Virus record (IMG/VR): IMGVR_UViG_3300022689_000116 | Coordinates: 1 to 64,000 of that record | Strand: one strand, 5' to 3' | Source of the DNA: a virus | Length of the DNA: 64,000 nt | Shown: positions 1-7,595 of the stretch, in pieces | Numbering within the stretch: position 1 is the stretch's first letter | Layout: each line of letters begins with the position of its first letter | The notes under the pieces: generated by a model | The model's input: only the letters and a program-made list of their open reading frames with translations | Database searches by the model: none | What the model was told of the DNA's origin: nothing | Program-made: the position numbers and the translations under genes

Positions 1-216
1 GAACTTATTGAAGCAACAGAAAATATTGTTGGTAATGACTGGTTTGAGGCTGATGGAACTCCGAATGTTATTAAGGTAGATGACTTTGAAGATTATGAAG
101 CTAAAGAGCAGTTTTTTAATGATACCGATAATAAAGATTTAATTATTACAAAAGGAGCAAGCTTTATAAGCGATGATGAAGATACTATTTTGAAAAAATA
201 TACAAAAAACAATTAA
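1..216 (+). CDS. 3' end of a hypothetical protein (partial)
   Basis: Open frame from base 1 (ELIEATEN...) to TAA at 214-216, 4 nt before the next ATG. Confidence 0.7.
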   Translation, partial: ELIEATENIVGNDWFEADGTPNVIKVDDFEDYEAKEQFFNDTDNKDLIITKGASFISDDEDTILKKYTKNN

Positions 217-817: not shown

Positions 818-2311
818 ATGAAAAAATTAATTTTTATACTGATGTTGCTTGTAGCATTTGTTGCTATTAAAGCACAAGTTATTCCATCTGGAGTTAGTGG
901 TTATCAACTTAGAACTAATGTGAATAATGCCTTTTCTGCACATGATGATTCTATTACATCTTTGCGTTATGCTACTAATCAGAATTATGGATTTATTTCA
1001 AGTCTTGATGATTCTATTAGTGAAATAAATGATTCTGTTGTAAATTTCAATAATTATATATCTAATATTAATGATTCTATTCCGGTATTACGTGGTCTTA
1101 TTGAAACTACTGTTAATATGGATTATGATACAATAGATTATCTTGACAATAGAGTTGATTCATCTAATATTAATATTTCAAGCTTACAAGATTCTATTCC
1201 TGTACTTAGATCACTAATTGGTAGTGGTGGTAGTGGTTCTATGGATTATGATACTATTGATTATGTTAATACAAGGATTGATTCGATTACACTTAGTTCA
1301 GTTGAAGCAGGAAGTATTGTTTATAAAGATTCTACTGATTATCCTCAATTACCTACTGGACTTGATACTACTTATTACCTAAATGCTACAAATAATTGGT
1401 CTGTTCCCGTTAGTGGTGGTGGTGGAAGTTCAGTATCTGTAATGTATTTTACGAATGCAAATGCTAAAGGAGATACTACTATAACTCATGGTGACTTTTA
1501 CGGTAAGGTTTTAGACGTGGCTGCTGATAGTAATTTTATAATGATTGGTAATACTTCGATCGTTCCTTCTGCAATAACTTTTACTGATTCTACACTAACT
1601 TATGGAACTGGTTTTTCTTCTGTTATCAATGTGGTTTACATAAGGGATTCAGTTGATTTGATTGTTCCTAGAAATTTACTAAATCCACTTGTTGCAAATA
1701 CTGTTGCTTATTATGCTTTTGAAGAAAGTAGTGGTGTTATTACAGATGCTACAGATAGTGCAAATGATGCTACAAGTTCAACGATTACAACTTATTCTGA
1801 AACCGGAATTGTTAATAATGCCATTACTCAAGCTGCAAGTGATGGTTCTGAGGTTCCTGTTTGGACATCATTTTCAAGACCTTTAAGTTATTCTGTTTGG
1901 ATTAACGTTCCAGGTGCTGTAACTGGTACTCAATATATTGTTGGTTGGAGTAATGCTGGGGGTCCTGCTCTTGCTATTACATCCACACAACTTCAATTTA
2001 TAAGACAGCGACAAGCTAATGTTTGTGATTATAATTTTGTTCCAACTGCTTCGACATGGTATCATATTGTATTTACTTATGATGCTAGTGGTAATTATGC
2101 CTTTTATGTTAATGGTAGTTCTGTTAAGACAGGAACGAGTAACGATGCTTCGATCAACTACGATTTAGATTTAAGAGTTGGTTCTAGAGATTTCCATACG
2201 GAATCTTTTATTGGAACAATGGATGAATTAGGTATATTTAATAAAGTACTTAGTCCTACTGAAGTTACAGAACTTTATAATAGTGGTTCTGGACTAACTT
2301 TTCCTTTTTAA
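818..2311 (+). CDS. exported fibre-like protein: signal peptide, coiled-coil stalk, C-terminal LamG/concanavalin-A-like lectin domain
   Basis: MKKLIFILMLLVAFVAIKA-Q signal peptide; heptad-like N-terminal half; Laminin_G_3-like motifs WYHIVFTYD..YAFYVNG and FIGTMDELGIFNKVLSPTEV. Confidence 0.8.
   Translation: MKKLIFILMLLVAFVAIKAQVIPSGVSGYQLRTNVNNAFSAHDDSITSLRYATNQNYGFISSLDDSISEINDSVVNFNNYISNINDSIPVLRGLIETTVNMDYDTIDYLDNRVDSSNINISSLQDSIPVLRSLIGSGGSGSMDYDTIDYVNTRIDSITLSSVEAGSIVYKDSTDYPQLPTGLDTTYYLNATNNWSVPVSGGGGSSVSVMYFTNANAKGDTTITHGDFYGKVLDVAADSNFIMIGNTSIVPSAITFTDSTLTYGTGFSSVINVVYIRDSVDLIVPRNLLNPLVANTVAYYAFEESSGVITDATDSANDATSSTITTYSETGIVNNAITQAASDGSEVPVWTSFSRPLSYSVWINVPGAVTGTQYIVGWSNAGGPALAITSTQLQFIRQRQANVCDYNFVPTASTWYHIVFTYDASGNYAFYVNGSSVKTGTSNDASINYDLDLRVGSRDFHTESFIGTMDELGIFNKVLSPTEVTELYNSGSGLTFPF
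1073..1288 (+). repeat. internal ~40-aa duplication in the stalk
   Basis: DSIPVLRGLI..MDYDTIDYLDNRVDS versus DSIPVLRSLI..MDYDTIDYVNTRIDS. Confidence 0.85.
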
Positions 2312-2323
2312 TAAATTAATGAT

Positions 2324-3979
2324 ATGAAGAAATTAATATTTATATTACTATTGTTTGTTCAAATTATTTCATTTGGACAGTATAGAACTGTACTTAGTGA
2401 AAGTCAAACTTTTATTGTTCCTAGTGATGCTAGTAATAATGAATGGGTTGGTACTATTAGATCATATCCTGAGGTTGAGTTATTAGGTACTTCTATTAAT
2501 TATAGTTTAAAAACTAATTTTCAAAATATTTATTCTGTAGCTGATAGTGGTACTATAGTTATTGCAAACGATATAAATTTAAATATAGGTTTAGATTCTA
2601 TTGAAGTTACTATTACCAAAGGAGCTATTACAAACGATATTTGGTTTTATATACGTTCTGTAGATTTTAACAATGTAACTTTTATTGATTTTGATGGTAC
2701 TTCTGGAGCTGGAACTAGAGCTAGTCCTTTGAATAATTTTGAAACATTTCATACAGGAGATACTATTCTTTGTAAGCGTGGTTCAAGTATATCGAGAACT
2801 CAATTATTTATAAGTGGTATTTCTAATATGTTAATAGGAAGTTATGGTAGTGGAGCAAAACCTATTGTAAGTTGTACTAGTAATGGAGGTAGAGCTATAA
2901 CTATAACTGATAATTCTGATAATATTACATTGAGAGAATTAGATGTAAAGGGCGAAGATTACATTCTTGATGCTGGTGGAAGTACAACTGTTAGTAATGG
3001 TATCTATGTTACTACAAACTCGGATAATGCTAAAATTCTTTATTGTGATATTCATAGGTTTGGTGGTGGGGTTAGTATGTATAATGGTTACATTACTGAT
3101 TTTTCTTGGAATGAAGTTTATAATATTGCTAATGATGGAGTGTTTTTTGCCAATGCTGCATCTATGAGTACTATTAGTATATTAGCCAATGCTAATTATG
3201 TACATGATGTAAATGATAATGATCAAATTTATGATAATGAAAGTCAAGCAAATGGTGATGGTTTTCAATCTGATCATATAGTTACCTATTCAAATAATTT
3301 TGTTGATCGAACGAGTTCTGATTTTAAATTTGCAATTATAGCAGGTAGTGTTGGATGTAATTTTATAAATAATTATTTCAATATGGGAACTGTTTACCAT
3401 AGACCTGCCGTTTACCCTATTACTTCTGGTCATTATTTTAAAGGTAATTATTTTAAAAATGGTGCTTTTGGAGTTTATAATTCAAGTGGTAATCAAACAT
3501 TTGAGTATAATATATTTGATGGATGTGATGATGTAGGTATATTTGGAGCAGGGGCAACACATAATGTTTATAACAATGTATTTTATAATTGTAATGCTGC
3601 ATTGAATACTGGTACTTATACGGCTAAAAACAATGTTCTTTTAAATGTTACAGGACTTGGAACTGGAACGACCACGTGGACTTATAATGTATATTATGGA
3701 ACGACTCCTGAAATAAGTGGAGCAACTAATTATAATTATAATCCTGCATTTATTAATTCTACTCTTGGAGATTTTAGAGTTTTAAGTACTTCTCCTATTG
3801 TTGATATTGGAACGGATGTTAGTTTAACAGTTGATTATTTTAATAATACAGTTCCATATAATACTATTCCTGATATAGGGGTATTTGAATATCAGGGTAT
3901 TGAAACACCTATTGATAATACTAAATATTATTTTAAAGTAAGACGTAATGGTTCTTACTTTTTTAGATATAATAATTAA
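2324..3979 (+). CDS. exported right-handed beta-helix protein (pectin-lyase-like depolymerase or adhesin) with cadherin-like N-domain and choice-of-anchor-Q-like C-terminus
   Basis: MKKLIFILLLFVQIISFG-Q signal peptide; GDTILCKRG and IGSYGSGAKP start of beta-helix; Asn/Gly ladders; GDFRVLSTSPIVDIG..PDIGVFEY. Confidence 0.75.
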   Translation: MKKLIFILLLFVQIISFGQYRTVLSESQTFIVPSDASNNEWVGTIRSYPEVELLGTSINYSLKTNFQNIYSVADSGTIVIANDINLNIGLDSIEVTITKGAITNDIWFYIRSVDFNNVTFIDFDGTSGAGTRASPLNNFETFHTGDTILCKRGSSISRTQLFISGISNMLIGSYGSGAKPIVSCTSNGGRAITITDNSDNITLRELDVKGEDYILDAGGSTTVSNGIYVTTNSDNAKILYCDIHRFGGGVSMYNGYITDFSWNEVYNIANDGVFFANAASMSTISILANANYVHDVNDNDQIYDNESQANGDGFQSDHIVTYSNNFVDRTSSDFKFAIIAGSVGCNFINNYFNMGTVYHRPAVYPITSGHYFKGNYFKNGAFGVYNSSGNQTFEYNIFDGCDDVGIFGAGATHNVYNNVFYNCNAALNTGTYTAKNNVLLNVTGLGTGTTTWTYNVYYGTTPEISGATNYNYNPAFINSTLGDFRVLSTSPIVDIGTDVSLTVDYFNNTVPYNTIPDIGVFEYQGIETPIDNTKYYFKVRRNGSYFFRYNN

Positions 3980-3990
3980 TAATTAAAGTT

Positions 3991-4302
3991 ATGAAAACAG
4001 AAGTTGAAAAATATTTAAAAGATGCTAAGGGTAATAATTCTAGTACTAGATATTTTAGTTATTTATTACTTAAATTCTTTATGTGGTTTAACGCTCTTGC
4101 TTTACCTTTACTTGGAATATTTGCATTTGTATTAAAAGGAGAAGTTAATGCGATAACGATGATGCTAGGTATAAGTAGTGTGTGGTTAGTATTCAATGCT
4201 TTACTTGGAATAATGATATTTGCTCCTAAACAAATGGGTAAAGTTGAAGAAATTAAAGAACTTATTGCATTAGCTACTGGAAATAAAACTGAAAATAAAT
4301 AA
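3991..4302 (+). CDS. small two-TM membrane protein (holin-like)
   Basis: Two hydrophobic segments with charged termini. Confidence 0.55.
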   Translation: MKTEVEKYLKDAKGNNSSTRYFSYLLLKFFMWFNALALPLLGIFAFVLKGEVNAITMMLGISSVWLVFNALLGIMIFAPKQMGKVEEIKELIALATGNKTENK

Positions 4303-4306
4303 ATAT

Positions 4307-4882
4307 ATGATAGCACAAAGTTATATAGTAAAAGATTGGAAAGATATTCCTAATACTGGATTTTATCTTGTTTTTATTCGTAGTAATACATTTATAGCAA
4401 AGGTTATTCATTTAGGAATGTGGTTACTTCAATTCCTAAGGATTAAAGTCTATCCTGAGAAAGTTCCTCAACATAGTGATATTGTTTATAATGGCATTAG
4501 TATTGGAGCATTAGGTAAAGGTATTCATCCTCATTCATTACAATATCGTCATAGGCATACTAAGAAAGATACTGTTATATGGGTATTTGAACCTATTATG
4601 ACTAAACAAGAAAAGGATAAAGTTTGGAAATTTCTACTTGCTCAAGAAGGTGTTTCTTATGAATATACTAATTTTGTTTATCATGCTTGGAGAATATTCA
4701 CTGGTTATTGGAAAGGTCATACTGGTAGATTTTCGATTAATGCTTGGTATTGTGTAGAACTTAGTGCTGCTGCTATTAATACTGTATGGAAAGGATTTAT
4801 TAAAAAACCTTGGGAACTTACTCCTTATAGATTTATTAAAACTGTTGTTGAATATAAACATAAATTCAAAATACCAAAATGA
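4307..4882 (+). CDS. permuted papain-like NlpC/P60 (YiiX/YebB-type) amidase
   Basis: N-terminal His (QHSDIV), G-x-x-Y-x-Y (GVSYEY) and C-terminal catalytic Cys (WYCVEL), the permuted order. Confidence 0.7.
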   Translation: MIAQSYIVKDWKDIPNTGFYLVFIRSNTFIAKVIHLGMWLLQFLRIKVYPEKVPQHSDIVYNGISIGALGKGIHPHSLQYRHRHTKKDTVIWVFEPIMTKQEKDKVWKFLLAQEGVSYEYTNFVYHAWRIFTGYWKGHTGRFSINAWYCVELSAAAINTVWKGFIKKPWELTPYRFIKTVVEYKHKFKIPK

Positions 4883-5256
4883 TGAACATAATAATCTTAA
4901 TAGTATTTCTGACTGTCATAATCCTTGATTCTACAGGGGATTCTTTAATGGACAGTAAACGTAATAAAGAACTTAGTCATCTTTTGAAGGCTATTAATAC
5001 TGGTATATTTATTCTTTTACCATTCTTTTTAAAGGTTGAACTTAACGATATTCTTTGGTATGTTATAGGTTATACTTTATTAAGATTTTCTTTATTTGAT
5101 TATATTTATAATCTTATATCTAAATTACCATTTAATTATATAGGTAAGACTAGTTATTATGACAAACTTCTTAATAAGATTAATCCTGGAAGTTTTATTT
5201 TTGCTAGAGTTATCGCTTTAGTTGCTGGTATTCATATAATTATAACTAAACTTTAA
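4879..5256 (+). CDS. multi-pass membrane protein
   Basis: 3-4 hydrophobic segments; ATGA overlap with the upstream gene. Confidence 0.7.
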   Translation: MMNIIILIVFLTVIILDSTGDSLMDSKRNKELSHLLKAINTGIFILLPFFLKVELNDILWYVIGYTLLRFSLFDYIYNLISKLPFNYIGKTSYYDKLLNKINPGSFIFARVIALVAGIHIIITKL

Positions 5257-5259
5257 ATT

Positions 5260-5916
5260 ATGGCTTCTTTAAAACAATTAGCTACTGAATATATTGATGC
5301 TTTAGGAAAGCCTTTTGATCATCTTTTATATGAAAGAATTAAAGCTCTTATCATACATGAACGATCAACTGAAATTAGACGTAGCGTTCAGAAATATGGT
5401 CTTGATGAAGAATTTCTTCAAAGATATAAGATTACATTAGTTCCGGTTGATGCTTCTGATTTATATGGTGTGAATAGTTATCATAAAGTTTTTAGAAGTG
5501 AGAATAAGATTGCTACTTTGATTAGAGTTCCTAGCGATAGTCCATTCTCTTATGTTGGTGCTGTAGATTTAACAGTTCCATTTCTTTATATTCAACCTTA
5601 TGCTTTAGGTAATATTGATTCTTTACCTGCTTTGAAAGATATTAATAAGTACAGTACTAGAAATGGTTATGTTTACGTTTATACTAAGAATGTTAATCTT
5701 AAAGAGTTAGTAGTTGAGGCACCTTTTGTTAATCCTCATTTAATTGATAATTCTAATTATACTGATGCTAGTATTCCATTTACAGATGATATGGAGTTTT
5801 TTATTAGTGAAGATATGATTCAGAACATTAAAATTAAACTTCTTAAAGGAGAACTATCTGTTACTAATACTTCTGATAAAGAAGTAAATATTGAAGAAGA
5901 TGAAAACGCTAGGTAA
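5260..5916 (+). CDS. putative tail ring protein (crAss-like)
   Basis: 218 aa; size and position upstream of the IHF-like, tubular and stabilisation genes as in crAss-like tail modules. Confidence 0.55.
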   Translation: MASLKQLATEYIDALGKPFDHLLYERIKALIIHERSTEIRRSVQKYGLDEEFLQRYKITLVPVDASDLYGVNSYHKVFRSENKIATLIRVPSDSPFSYVGAVDLTVPFLYIQPYALGNIDSLPALKDINKYSTRNGYVYVYTKNVNLKELVVEAPFVNPHLIDNSNYTDASIPFTDDMEFFISEDMIQNIKIKLLKGELSVTNTSDKEVNIEEDENAR

Positions 5917-6799
5917 AGAAGAACTATATTCTGATTATATAGATGATATTCTAACTGAAATTAAAGGTTTAAGAACTTCTCTAAATGATCAAAGTAAATT
6001 AAAAGATCATTATTTAGAAACTATTATTTCTTATTCAGAATATTATAAATATAGTAAAAATAGTAAACCAATACCTAAAGATCAATTTATTGAAAATATT
6101 AAACATTCAATTATAAGTACCGTTTCTGATAGTTATACTTATGATTCTATTTCTAAACCTACAGATACTGAACATTTAAACATTTTTAAATCATTTATTA
6201 ATAATTTTGTTTATAGAAATAATAGGGTTAAATATCTTAATGGTAAAATTGAAGAACTAAAAACATATCTTATAAGCAAAGAAGATTATATTAAAATAAA
6301 TGATAGTTATAATCAAGAACTTGTTAAATTTCTTTTAGATGGTAATACTTATAGCCTTGGAAGTAGATTGGGAAATATTTATATAGCTGGTAAAGCTCGT
6401 TCTAAGAAGTCTATTGATTGGGGTGAGTCAAATAAGTATAAACAGCAATTACTTGACAGTGGTCAGATTCCCTATAGAAAAGAAGATTCTGAGAAAGCCA
6501 AAGCTCGTGGAGAAGATTATAAAGGTGTAATGTGGTATATATATAATTATAGTAAATATGTATATCATCTCAAATGGACTAAACCATTGTTTGTTAAAAA
6601 TATTAAACTTTTTAGTTTTATTCCATCTATTGCTAACAATACTAAAATGAGTATTGAAAAATTAAAAAATTGTTCTAATTTTAAAGATATTCCAAACCTT
6701 AATATAGGTATGGTACAAAAGATTAAACTTAGTACTGAATATGATAATGATCATTATCGTAAGTATTTAAATAAAAAAGTTAAAGACAATGAATTATAA
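5900..6799 (+). CDS. crAss-like IHF/HU-related protein of the tail module
   Basis: LLDGNTYSLGSRLGNIYIAGKAR resembles the HU/IHF beta-arm; IDWGES motif; synteny. Confidence 0.55.
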   Translation: MKTLGKEELYSDYIDDILTEIKGLRTSLNDQSKLKDHYLETIISYSEYYKYSKNSKPIPKDQFIENIKHSIISTVSDSYTYDSISKPTDTEHLNIFKSFINNFVYRNNRVKYLNGKIEELKTYLISKEDYIKINDSYNQELVKFLLDGNTYSLGSRLGNIYIAGKARSKKSIDWGESNKYKQQLLDSGQIPYRKEDSEKAKARGEDYKGVMWYIYNYSKYVYHLKWTKPLFVKNIKLFSFIPSIANNTKMSIEKLKNCSNFKDIPNLNIGMVQKIKLSTEYDNDHYRKYLNKKVKDNEL

Positions 6800-7595
6800 T
6801 CTTGTTACATCTAAAGAAACTATTGGTAGAGTTTTTAATTCTTATAATATTAAATCTTCTACTTTTATACCAAAGGTTCCTCAGTGGGTTGGTGAAGCTC
6901 TTGGTAAACTTAAACTATACGTTAGTTTACAACCTATGGTAACTAAGATAGAAGTTTCTAATTATAGAGGCTTTGTTCCATCTGGAATTAAACGTATTGA
7001 CGCTGTTTTGTATGAGGGTAAGATATTACCTAGAGTTATAGGTAAACGTTTAGTTAATCCTAATGAGAATTTATTTGATCCTTTATATGTTAGAGATACA
7101 ATACAAAATGTAGAGTATGATGATGAAGGTAACATAACTCAAATAAGAACTGTTGAAAATACAGAGGTTACAGTTTCTGCTGATTATATTACTAGTCGTC
7201 ATAATTATATATTAAATGGAAGTGGTTATTTGGATACTTCTTTTGAAAGTGGTATCATATATTTATATTATGTTGGAATACCTCAAGAATATGATGAAAT
7301 TTCAGGTATTTATTATCCATTAATTCCCGATCTTGAATATTGTAAAGAAGCTATAGTTTGGTATATTCTTATGAACATACTTTATAGTGGATATATTCAT
7401 CCGCTTTTATCACTTACGGCAAATAATAGATATATTAATCCTGCTTTACAGTTTGATTATTATCAACCCAAAGCTAAGAATGAAAGTCTTAGACTTGATA
7501 GAGAACAAAGAGAATTACATAGTAGATTATGGAATTCAGTTGTGATTGATGCAAGTGATTTTGAACATTCTTTTCACCCTAAATATAGTGAGTAA
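6789..7595 (+). CDS. tail tubular/ring protein
   Basis: WVGEALGKL, YLDTSFESGIIYLYY and PLIPD..CKEAIVWY patterns; directly upstream of the stabilisation protein. Confidence 0.65.
   Translation: MNYNLVTSKETIGRVFNSYNIKSSTFIPKVPQWVGEALGKLKLYVSLQPMVTKIEVSNYRGFVPSGIKRIDAVLYEGKILPRVIGKRLVNPNENLFDPLYVRDTIQNVEYDDEGNITQIRTVENTEVTVSADYITSRHNYILNGSGYLDTSFESGIIYLYYVGIPQEYDEISGIYYPLIPDLEYCKEAIVWYILMNILYSGYIHPLLSLTANNRYINPALQFDYYQPKAKNESLRLDREQRELHSRLWNSVVIDASDFEHSFHPKYSE

Follow-up and report, generated by a model that had tools for sequence, protein, structure and literature searches.

Organisation of the locus

The window, by which we mean the whole stretch of DNA analysed, is the first 64 kb of one viral contig of 80,709 bp. 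CheckV puts the completeness of this linear contig at about 85%, and its G+C content is about 28%. Its 3' end truncates a fibre-like ORF lacking a signal peptide, and a second frame is already open at its 5' end. The missing ~15% of the genome may contain further fibre genes. We analysed the open reading frame that starts at position 818 (ORF818) and the genes around it. The features are as follows.

818..2311, + strand: ORF818, an open frame of 497 aa; predicted exported fibre-like lectin
818..874, + strand: predicted Sec/SPI-type signal peptide, aa 1-19, MKKLIFILMLLVAFVAIKA (sequence reading; AF2 helix)
926..1114, + strand: nine-heptad coiled-coil stalk, aa 37-99 (heptad phase count)
947..1762, + strand: sequon-bearing region, aa 44-315, with 14 D-(S/T)-(A/I/L/V/M/T) sites (motif count)
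1064..1285, + strand: internal duplication, aa 83-117 versus aa 122-156, 57% identity, three D-S/T-x positions per copy
1850..2266, + strand: Laminin_G_3 / concanavalin-A-like lectin domain (LamG), aa 345-483 (PF13385, E=4e-19)
2324..3979, + strand: ORF2324, 551 aa, signal peptide MKKLIFILLLFVQIISFG followed by Q; first 8 residues the same as in ORF818
3991..4302, + strand: two-TM protein, 103 aa, holin candidate, first gene of a putative lysis cassette (sequence reading)
4307..4882, + strand: candidate endolysin, 191 aa, like a permuted papain-like amidase (Peptidase_C92 / NlpC-P60)
4879..5256, + strand: multi-TM protein, 125 aa, putative lysis cassette
5260-5916, + strand: crAss tail ring protein 2 (PF25702, E=2e-18)
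within 5260..7595, + strand: 302-aa ORF between the two tail ring genes
6789-7595, + strand: crAss tail ring protein 1 (PF24228, E=1e-23)

The gene after ring protein 1 encodes 1,492 aa, weakly similar to crAss-like phage, and is followed by a 4,496-aa ORF. The MCP matches PHROG 11589, and IMG/VR contains 80 relatives of it that are 44-59% identical. The best matches of the family B DNAP, at about 35% identity, are in crAss-like phages that include isolates on Bacteroides. With tail ring proteins 1 and 2, a muzzle-like protein and a giant virion RNAP, the MCP and DNAP complete the hallmarks of the Crassvirales. This gene content places the phage in that order, as a divergent member. Crassvirales identity implies a Bacteroidota host and, together with the signal peptidase rule described below, we infer such a host here. 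In one relative, G001, stop-codon recoding was considered and rejected; the apparent gap is an ORF running off the end of the locus.

With the head genes on one side and tail ring proteins 1 and 2 on the other, ORF818 is in the tail/fibre module. The same ring proteins anchor the lysis cassette within the tail module of a Crassvirales genome. No family match was found for the 103-aa holin candidate. For the 191-aa protein, ESM Atlas features (0.94-0.96) and structure (TM 0.66-0.73) provide a lead to its assignment as a candidate endolysin.

The 5' DNA of ORF2324 includes a stretch near-identical to that of ORF818, and the signal peptide ends FG, followed by Q. In the AF2 model of ORF2324 (pLDDT 72, pTM 0.80), a right-handed beta-helix comes after a cadherin-like Ig domain. 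By fold, the model is most similar to CBA120 tailspikes, alginate lyase, chondroitinase B and RbmB; as modelled, ORF2324 looks like a depolymerase. Its relatives in sequence have signal peptides or a lipobox. One carries a T9SS sorting domain, which indicates that the family is secreted.

ORF818 is predicted to be exported by the host Sec pathway

The N-terminus of ORF818, MKKLIFILMLLVAFVAIKA followed by Q, has a basic n-region containing two Lys and a hydrophobic core of 14 residues, with small residues at -3 and -1 and Gln at +1. Cleavage is predicted between A19 and Q20, and the Gln20 codon is at 875-877. Residues 2-20 form a confident helix in the AF2 model. The signal peptide ending AIKA-Q that the first-pass annotation reported is thus present, with n-, h- and c-regions, and it fits the Bacteroidota Q-rule. 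This rule, which places Gln directly behind the SPI site, is confined to SPI substrates of Bacteroidetes (PMC5837995). Gln at +1 was found in ORF818, ORF2324 and the proteins P0151, P0152 and P0157. As read from the sequence, these features indicate for ORF818 the extracytoplasmic location of an O-glycosylation substrate.

We considered whether the hydrophobic N-terminus might stay uncleaved, leaving either an ordinary cytoplasmic fibre or a protein held by an inner-membrane signal anchor. Some signal peptide calls for phage structural proteins are false positives (PMC10367356), and the call for ORF818 is a reading of the sequence. However, the h-region is only 14 residues long and is flanked by KK and the A-x-A-like IKA-Q. 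Moreover, Gln occupies +1 in all five of the proteins named above, the T9SS sorting domain in a homologue of ORF2324 marks that family as secreted, and a cytoplasmic location would leave the sequon bias described below unexplained. Hence, we regard the absence of cleavage as very unlikely.

The destination of an exported protein depends on further signals, and these were sought. Neither a lipobox Cys nor a barrel occurs in ORF818, and no match to a T9SS C-terminal sorting domain (PF18962 / TIGR04183) was obtained in ORF818, ORF2324 or the whole contig. Two candidate routes were rejected accordingly: ORF818 as type IX secretion cargo, for want of the C-terminal domain, and ORF818 as a lipoprotein or surface-anchored protein, for want of the lipobox Cys. 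The proposal that ORF818 is a surface protein of the infected cell is unlikely for the same reasons. A protein lacking lipobox, T9SS domain and barrel is predicted to be soluble in the periplasm until lysis. Overall, the earlier suggestion that the phage routes an adhesin through host Sec gains from the signal peptide, the Q-rule and the Crassvirales identity of the phage; export itself is the predicted step.

A coiled-coil stalk precedes a C-terminal lectin domain

Between aa 37 and aa 99, residues I, L, V, M or F are found at phase 3 of 8/9 heptads and at phase 6 of 6/9; at all other phases they occur in no more than 2/9. The register is gone past aa 100. The heptad-like stalk proposed previously is therefore borne out, on a sequence basis, for aa 37-99. 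The stalk contains a module conserved in relatives of ORF818, DSITSLRxATNQNYGFI ... DSIPxLRGLIE.

At the C-terminus, the LamG domain described by the first-pass annotation was recovered as Pfam PF13385, with a score of 69.7 bits against a gathering cut-off of 27.6 bits. The domain is modelled by AF2 with pLDDT of about 80-90 and contains no sequons. By comparison, aa 20-290 have pLDDT of about 30, and the coiled coil is absent from the model. The alignment used for AF2 had 13 rows, the first of which, P0001, is one residue apart from the window protein (T304 for S304). Searches of the ESM Atlas with aa 20-330 gave scores below 0.9 and TM below 0.3. No PHROG or Pfam match, and so no known virion-anchoring domain, was found in aa 1-290.

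The excess of sequons in ORF818 is specific to the oriented motif

The tripeptide D-(S/T)-(A/I/L/V/M/T) is the acceptor of the Bacteroidota general O-glycosylation system, which acts in the periplasm; the definition of this sequon used by the first-pass annotation agrees with a review (PMC12871550). That annotation had counted 14 sequons in the first ~315 aa (five DSI, two each of DSV, DTI, DST and DTT, and one DSA). Both the total and the subtype counts are exact, and the sites span aa 44-315. The expected number from composition is 3.4, close to the rough figure of about 3 suggested before, and 0/20,000 shuffles reached 14. When compared with other phage proteins, ORF818 had the lowest P-value of 1,568 ORFs from Crassvirales genomes and loci.

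Control motifs were counted in the same way. The observed and expected numbers were 1 and 1.0 for E[ST]h, 1 and 3.6 for N[ST]h, 3 and 3.4 for the reversed motif, and 6 and 3.4 for D[AILVMT][ST]. For D[ST][non-hydrophobic] there were 2 occurrences against 4.9 expected, a depletion. Consistent with this, 14/16 D-S/T dipeptides precede a permitted residue (binomial P=2e-4). The excess in ORF818 is confined to the oriented motif.

A structural origin for the excess has to be weighed. ORF818 could be exported and yet carry its D-S/T-hydrophobic tripeptides as a by-product of repeats and coiled coil, with D-S at heptad positions f-g and Ile at a. Glycosylation would then be absent or incidental, for example if the host lacks or under-uses the system. 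Indeed, the sequons at residues 44, 65, 72 and 86 are in register at positions f-g-a, so part of the count could reflect the structural repeat. The internal duplication supplies a further 2-3 sequons, leaving about 11-12 independent sites. The motif is also not enriched in all species of Bacteroidota (PMC12871550). Against this, ten sites map outside the coiled coil, coiled coils do not usually favour D/S at f/g, and neither the flat permuted controls nor the depletion of D[ST][non-hydrophobic] would be expected of a by-product. The relatives of ORF818, and unrelated phage proteins, bear on the same question.

Relatives of ORF818 maintain sequon density at different sites

Among 5.8 billion clustered proteins, the N-terminal 290 residues of ORF818 have only two relatives, P0151 (499 aa) and P0152 (550 aa). 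Both begin with a signal peptide and have an A-Q junction, as in ORF818. The sequence DSITSLRxATNQNYGFI is common to all three proteins and DSIPxLRGLIE is also in P0151. The C-terminal domains of P0151 and P0152 differ from that of ORF818, and LamG is missing from both. Conversely, the LamG part of ORF818 has thousands of homologues, and the best 150 matches to ORF818 cover LamG only.

Other searches added no further relatives. Against 50,697 phage records, ORF818 gave no tblastn match, and two scans of genome contigs were negative too. Scans of IMG/VR with ORF818 and P0151 gave LamG-only matches or none, and a metagenome scan with uninformative patterns gave a single LamG match.

Both relatives are enriched for sequons, with 12 in P0151 (4.0 expected) and 12 in P0152 (3.2 expected). 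In each case 0/20,000 shuffles reached the observed number and the controls were flat. About half of the sites are conserved between P0151 and P0152; the rest are lost in one protein and gained elsewhere in the other, so that the total stays at 12. Such turnover at a constant total is the pattern expected if density, not position, is selected. Thus, conservation of sequons in homologues, which the first-pass annotation had put forward as a check, holds for density in both relatives, although the sites are largely non-homologous. That the same density is held through different sites and tripeptides argues further against a by-product of the repeats. Among the LamG matches listed, 24 other proteins of up to 800 aa, most without a signal peptide, include none that is sequon-enriched.

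Sequon bias is seen in signal peptide proteins of the Crassvirales

The 82 called ORFs of the contig contain 96 sequons, compared with 82 expected. Those without a signal peptide account for 74 (74.7 expected) and those with a signal peptide for 22 (7.1 expected). Only two ORFs in the contig are strongly enriched, and both encode signal peptide proteins. One is ORF818. The other, beyond the window at contig positions 65,937-66,509, encodes a 190-aa protein with a lipoprotein-type N-terminus, a C-terminal TM helix and 6 sequons where 0.6 are expected.

We extended the count to 1,568 ORFs from this genome, crAss001, crAss002, 'jaberico', phi14:2 and 80 IMG/VR loci. ORF calling and signal peptide classification were crude, and proteins were clustered at 40% identity. 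The ratio of observed to expected sequons was 0.99 for 480 cytoplasmic clusters and 1.24 for 105 clusters with TM segments. For 30 signal peptide clusters it was 2.87 (44.5 observed, 15.5 expected), or about 2.5 when ORF818 was left out. Small spanin-like proteins contribute the bulk of this signal. These include crAss001 gp27 (4 versus 0.3) and phi14:2 g076, which adjoins the endolysin (4 versus 0.6); a lipoprotein-plus-TM gene upstream of terminase adds to the signal in many relatives. In a small control, exported proteins of lambda and the T1 coliphage had 3 sequons, with 2.7 expected.

The presence of the same bias in unrelated signal peptide proteins of the Crassvirales is a further argument against a by-product of the ORF818 repeats. 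Exported proteins without enrichment are in its favour; these are ORF2324 (2 versus 2.3) and three proteins of Cellulophaga phage phi18:3 (3 versus 9.7). Hence, enrichment is no general rule for exported phage proteins. Taken together, we consider the by-product explanation unlikely.

A proposed model for export, glycosylation and release

Given its N-terminus and its motifs, the ORF818 product, made in a Bacteroidota cell, would be exported and glycosylated. Export together with O-glycosylation by the host is the best-supported reading of the sequence, and we consider it probable. The dense host glycosylation proposed by the first-pass annotation gains from the motif-specific enrichment, from both relatives and from the Crassvirales signal peptide proteins; attachment of glycans is the part that stays predicted.

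Our preferred explanation, to which we assign a probability of about 0.45, is that ORF818 encodes an exported, O-glycosylated protein that is periplasmic until lysis and is then a glycan-binding fibre outside the cell. Export, cleavage, glycosylation, destination and function are all projected here from the sequence features and enrichment statistics. The product would be made late in infection and translocated by host Sec, and signal peptidase I would cut before Gln20. The exposed Gln20 would cyclise to pyroglutamate, as in Bacteroidota. In the periplasm, the coiled-coil stalk would oligomerise and the host general O-glycosylation system would load up to 14 Ser/Thr sites in the stalk and middle region, while LamG would stay bare. 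The protein would remain soluble there, beside its co-exported, beta-helix, depolymerase-like neighbour, until the adjacent holin/amidase cassette opens the cell. A protease-hardened, glycan-binding fibre may then act outside.

Does the ORF818 product join the particle? The first-pass annotation had proposed a virion appendage or a surface protein of the infected cell. In the fullest form of the appendage idea, the virion carries ORF818 as a true receptor-binding fibre. The protein would mature in the periplasm, by pyroglutamate formation, O-glycan addition and oligomerisation, and would dock at lysis, via an N-terminal adaptor, on fibre-less particles assembled in the cytoplasm. The gene has the position of a tail fibre directly before lysis genes, as for crAss001 gp22-26 before gp27-30. 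The protein combines a coiled-coil stalk with a C-terminal lectin, and the three family members share a conserved N-terminus and have swapped C-termini, a modularity like that of receptor-binding proteins. In addition, the LamG region matches a PHROG annotated as virion structural protein, and phage tailspikes are the best fold matches of the neighbouring ORF2324.

A precedent of sorts comes from phi18:3, a member of the Pachyviridae. Its proteins gp085, gp086 and gp087 each carry a signal peptide followed by Gln at +1, are encoded directly upstream of lysis genes, and are listed in GenBank as virion proteins 'based on experimental MS/MS proteomics analysis'. The phi18:3 data are the sole experimental hint that exported proteins end with particles and, by analogy, they raise the probability that ORF818 does so. 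Even so, co-purification in MS is no proof of incorporation, and the phi18:3 proteins, unlike ORF818, avoid sequons.

Other evidence also points away from the virion. No such route is known in tailed phages, and no homology was found between ORF818 and either fibre anchors or phi18:3 gp085-087. For crAss001 and phi14:2, the Crassvirales with virion proteome or structure data, the fibres have no signal peptide. The closest complete relative, with an 88.6-kb genome, terminal repeats and an MCP 59% identical, has no ORF818 homologue. At the corresponding place is an unrelated fibre ORF of 2,162 aa, which has no signal peptide and no similarity to ORF818. Furthermore, another fibre-like ORF, without a signal peptide, spans the contig ends, and the contig lacks about 15% of the genome. 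The virion appendage is thus not our first choice, and a true receptor-binding fibre that matures in the periplasm seems to us possible but rather less likely. For the periplasmic protein released at lysis, we slightly prefer a free or envelope-acting accessory over a part built into the particle.

A broader version of the same idea is that many Bacteroidota phages, this one included, have receptor-binding fibres that pass through Sec, are trimmed to pyroglutamate and take on a coat of host O-glycan in the periplasm, joining the particle only at lysis. We offer this tentatively, and think it doubtful at present. Were the receptor-binding-fibre route true, two-compartment assembly would be new for tailed phages and host glycan would be displayed on the virion.

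Significance

Bacteroidota O-glycoproteins and phage Sec substrates are both already known kinds of protein. In the literature, we found no paper on phage-encoded substrates of Bacteroidota O-glycosylation or on tailed-phage fibres that bear signal peptides, and none that combined Crassvirales with signal peptide or phage with the Bacteroidota sequon. If confirmed, ORF818 would be the first phage-encoded substrate of this phylum-wide glycosylation system. It would also mean that phage protein sequences bear the imprint of the host's machinery for post-translational processing (Sec, the Q-rule cyclase and the O-OTase). The sequon bias in the Crassvirales, 2.9x for signal peptide proteins and 0.99x for cytoplasmic proteins, could mark the host phylum of uncultured phages. 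Gut and environmental Bacteroidota have heavily glycosylated envelopes, and our observations bear on the way in which crAss-like phages deal with them. Maturation of tailed-phage fibres outside the cytoplasm becomes a testable question, most easily in the cultured phi18:3.

Comparison with known systems

The motif is present in about half of the non-cytoplasmic proteins of Bacteroidota, and is enriched there in this phylum, although this enrichment is not universal across species (PMC12871550). Occupancy of the sites is nearly complete, engineered motifs also serve as acceptors, and B. fragilis and T. forsythia glycosylate one another's proteins (PMC12871550). In P. gingivalis, 257 sites have been mapped in 145 proteins; these are mainly periplasmic and inner-membrane proteins, and abundant surface proteins avoid the motif (PMC8729774). 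ORF818 resembles such substrates in its predicted Sec export, exact motif, Q-rule N-terminus and predicted residence in the periplasm. It differs from them in being a gene of a lytic-type crAss-like phage rather than of a cell. It also differs in density, with 14 sites per about 270 residues; in P. gingivalis and T. forsythia there are roughly 1.8-2.2 mapped sites per glycoprotein (PMC8729774, PMC8550257).

Signal peptide proteins of P. gingivalis prophages obey the Q-rule; their function is unknown, and the paper that describes them has 0 occurrences of glycosylation (PMC10367356). Like ORF818, they are phage Sec substrates adapted to the signal peptidase and glutaminyl cyclase rule of the Bacteroidota. 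Unlike ORF818, they belong to temperate phages, and no fibre or lectin architecture is mentioned for them (PMC10367356).

With respect to other Crassvirales, the tail fibre genes gp22-26 of crAss001 have the position of ORF818, after head genes and before the lysis genes gp27-30. The tail-fibre modules of crAss001 and other Crassvirales share lectin- or depolymerase-type domains with the ORF818 locus. However, the crAss001 fibres have no signal peptide, no sequon excess and no homology to ORF818, and the phi14:2 fibres likewise are without signal peptides. As regards the lectin domain, the C-terminal 150 residues of ORF818 are a clear member of the Laminin_G_3 family (PF13385). Homologues of similar size start MALTDN...YWKLDE, and have neither a signal peptide nor sequon enrichment.

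The phi18:3 proteins gp085-087 have in common with ORF818 a phage of a Bacteroidota host, a Sec signal peptide, Gln at +1 and the position before lysis genes, and one of them is beta-helix-like, as is the modelled ORF2324. They come from a different phage family, with no homology to ORF818 or ORF2324, and they are depleted of sequons where ORF818 is four-fold enriched. In being rich in sequons, ORF818 resembles periplasm-resident host proteins and spanin-like phage proteins more than it does the proteins of phi18:3.

Sequon content, 5' end and sampling of ORF818

The Bacteroidota O-glycosylation motif, D-(S/T)-(A/I/L/V/M/T), is enriched in the predicted exported fibre-like lectin ORF818 and in both relatives that share its N-terminal module, P0151 and P0152. 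In the same three proteins, the corresponding N-(S/T)-hydrophobic tripeptides are depleted relative to composition (1 observed against 3.6 expected, 0 against 3.1 and 0 against 2.7, respectively). ORF818 and its signal-peptide neighbour ORF2324 have identical residues 1-8 (MKKLIFIL), and the underlying 5' DNA is almost the same (window 818-845 and 2324-2351). This common start suggests that the signal-peptide-coding segment was duplicated or exchanged.

A copy of ORF818 on a separate 18,971-bp JGI/IMG contig differs at 1 of 497 residues (T304 versus S304). Hence, the phage has been sampled at least twice. Our contig has no terminal repeat and an estimated completeness of 85% (CheckV). Consequently, the contig probably lacks some of the fibre genes' region. 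Relevant features are as follows.

Window 1-216: 71-aa open frame entering at the contig 5' end, in a different frame from the ORF at the 3' end
Window 1727-1729: codon for ORF818 residue 304, the sole difference between the two copies
L015:15893-16708 (same contig, beyond the window): ORF of at least 272 aa, open at the contig 3' end

Predicted envelope-associated and exported proteins

Window 4307-4882: 191-aa protein between two membrane proteins
Contig 65,937-66,509 (L015:1937-2509, outside the window): 190-aa protein immediately upstream of the terminase
L017:2977-3675 (closest relative): 232-aa membrane protein upstream of the terminase
L098:5892-11584: Cellulophaga phage phi18:3 gp085-087, three 'virion' proteins detected by mass spectrometry

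The 191-aa protein is a likely endolysin candidate; it resembles permuted papain-like amidases (Peptidase_C92/NlpC-P60; ESM Atlas) and had no Pfam, PHROG or PDB sequence matches. The 190-aa protein combines a lipoprotein-type signal (…LGLMNSC) with a C-terminal TM helix, a predicted unimolecular-spanin-like architecture, and contains 6 sequons (0.6 expected). Many crAss-like relatives encode a counterpart at the same position that is likewise rich in sequons. The 232-aa protein, with 7 sequons against 0.8 expected, is a further strongly enriched envelope protein in the phage clade.

All three phi18:3 proteins, from a cultured Bacteroidota phage, have a Sec signal peptide and Gln at +1. Opposite to ORF818, their O-glycosylation motifs are depleted (3 against 9.7 expected). 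Whereas the positional counterparts of the 190-aa protein in crAss-like relatives are sequon-rich, the u-spanin of coliphage T1 has no sequons (0.6 expected).
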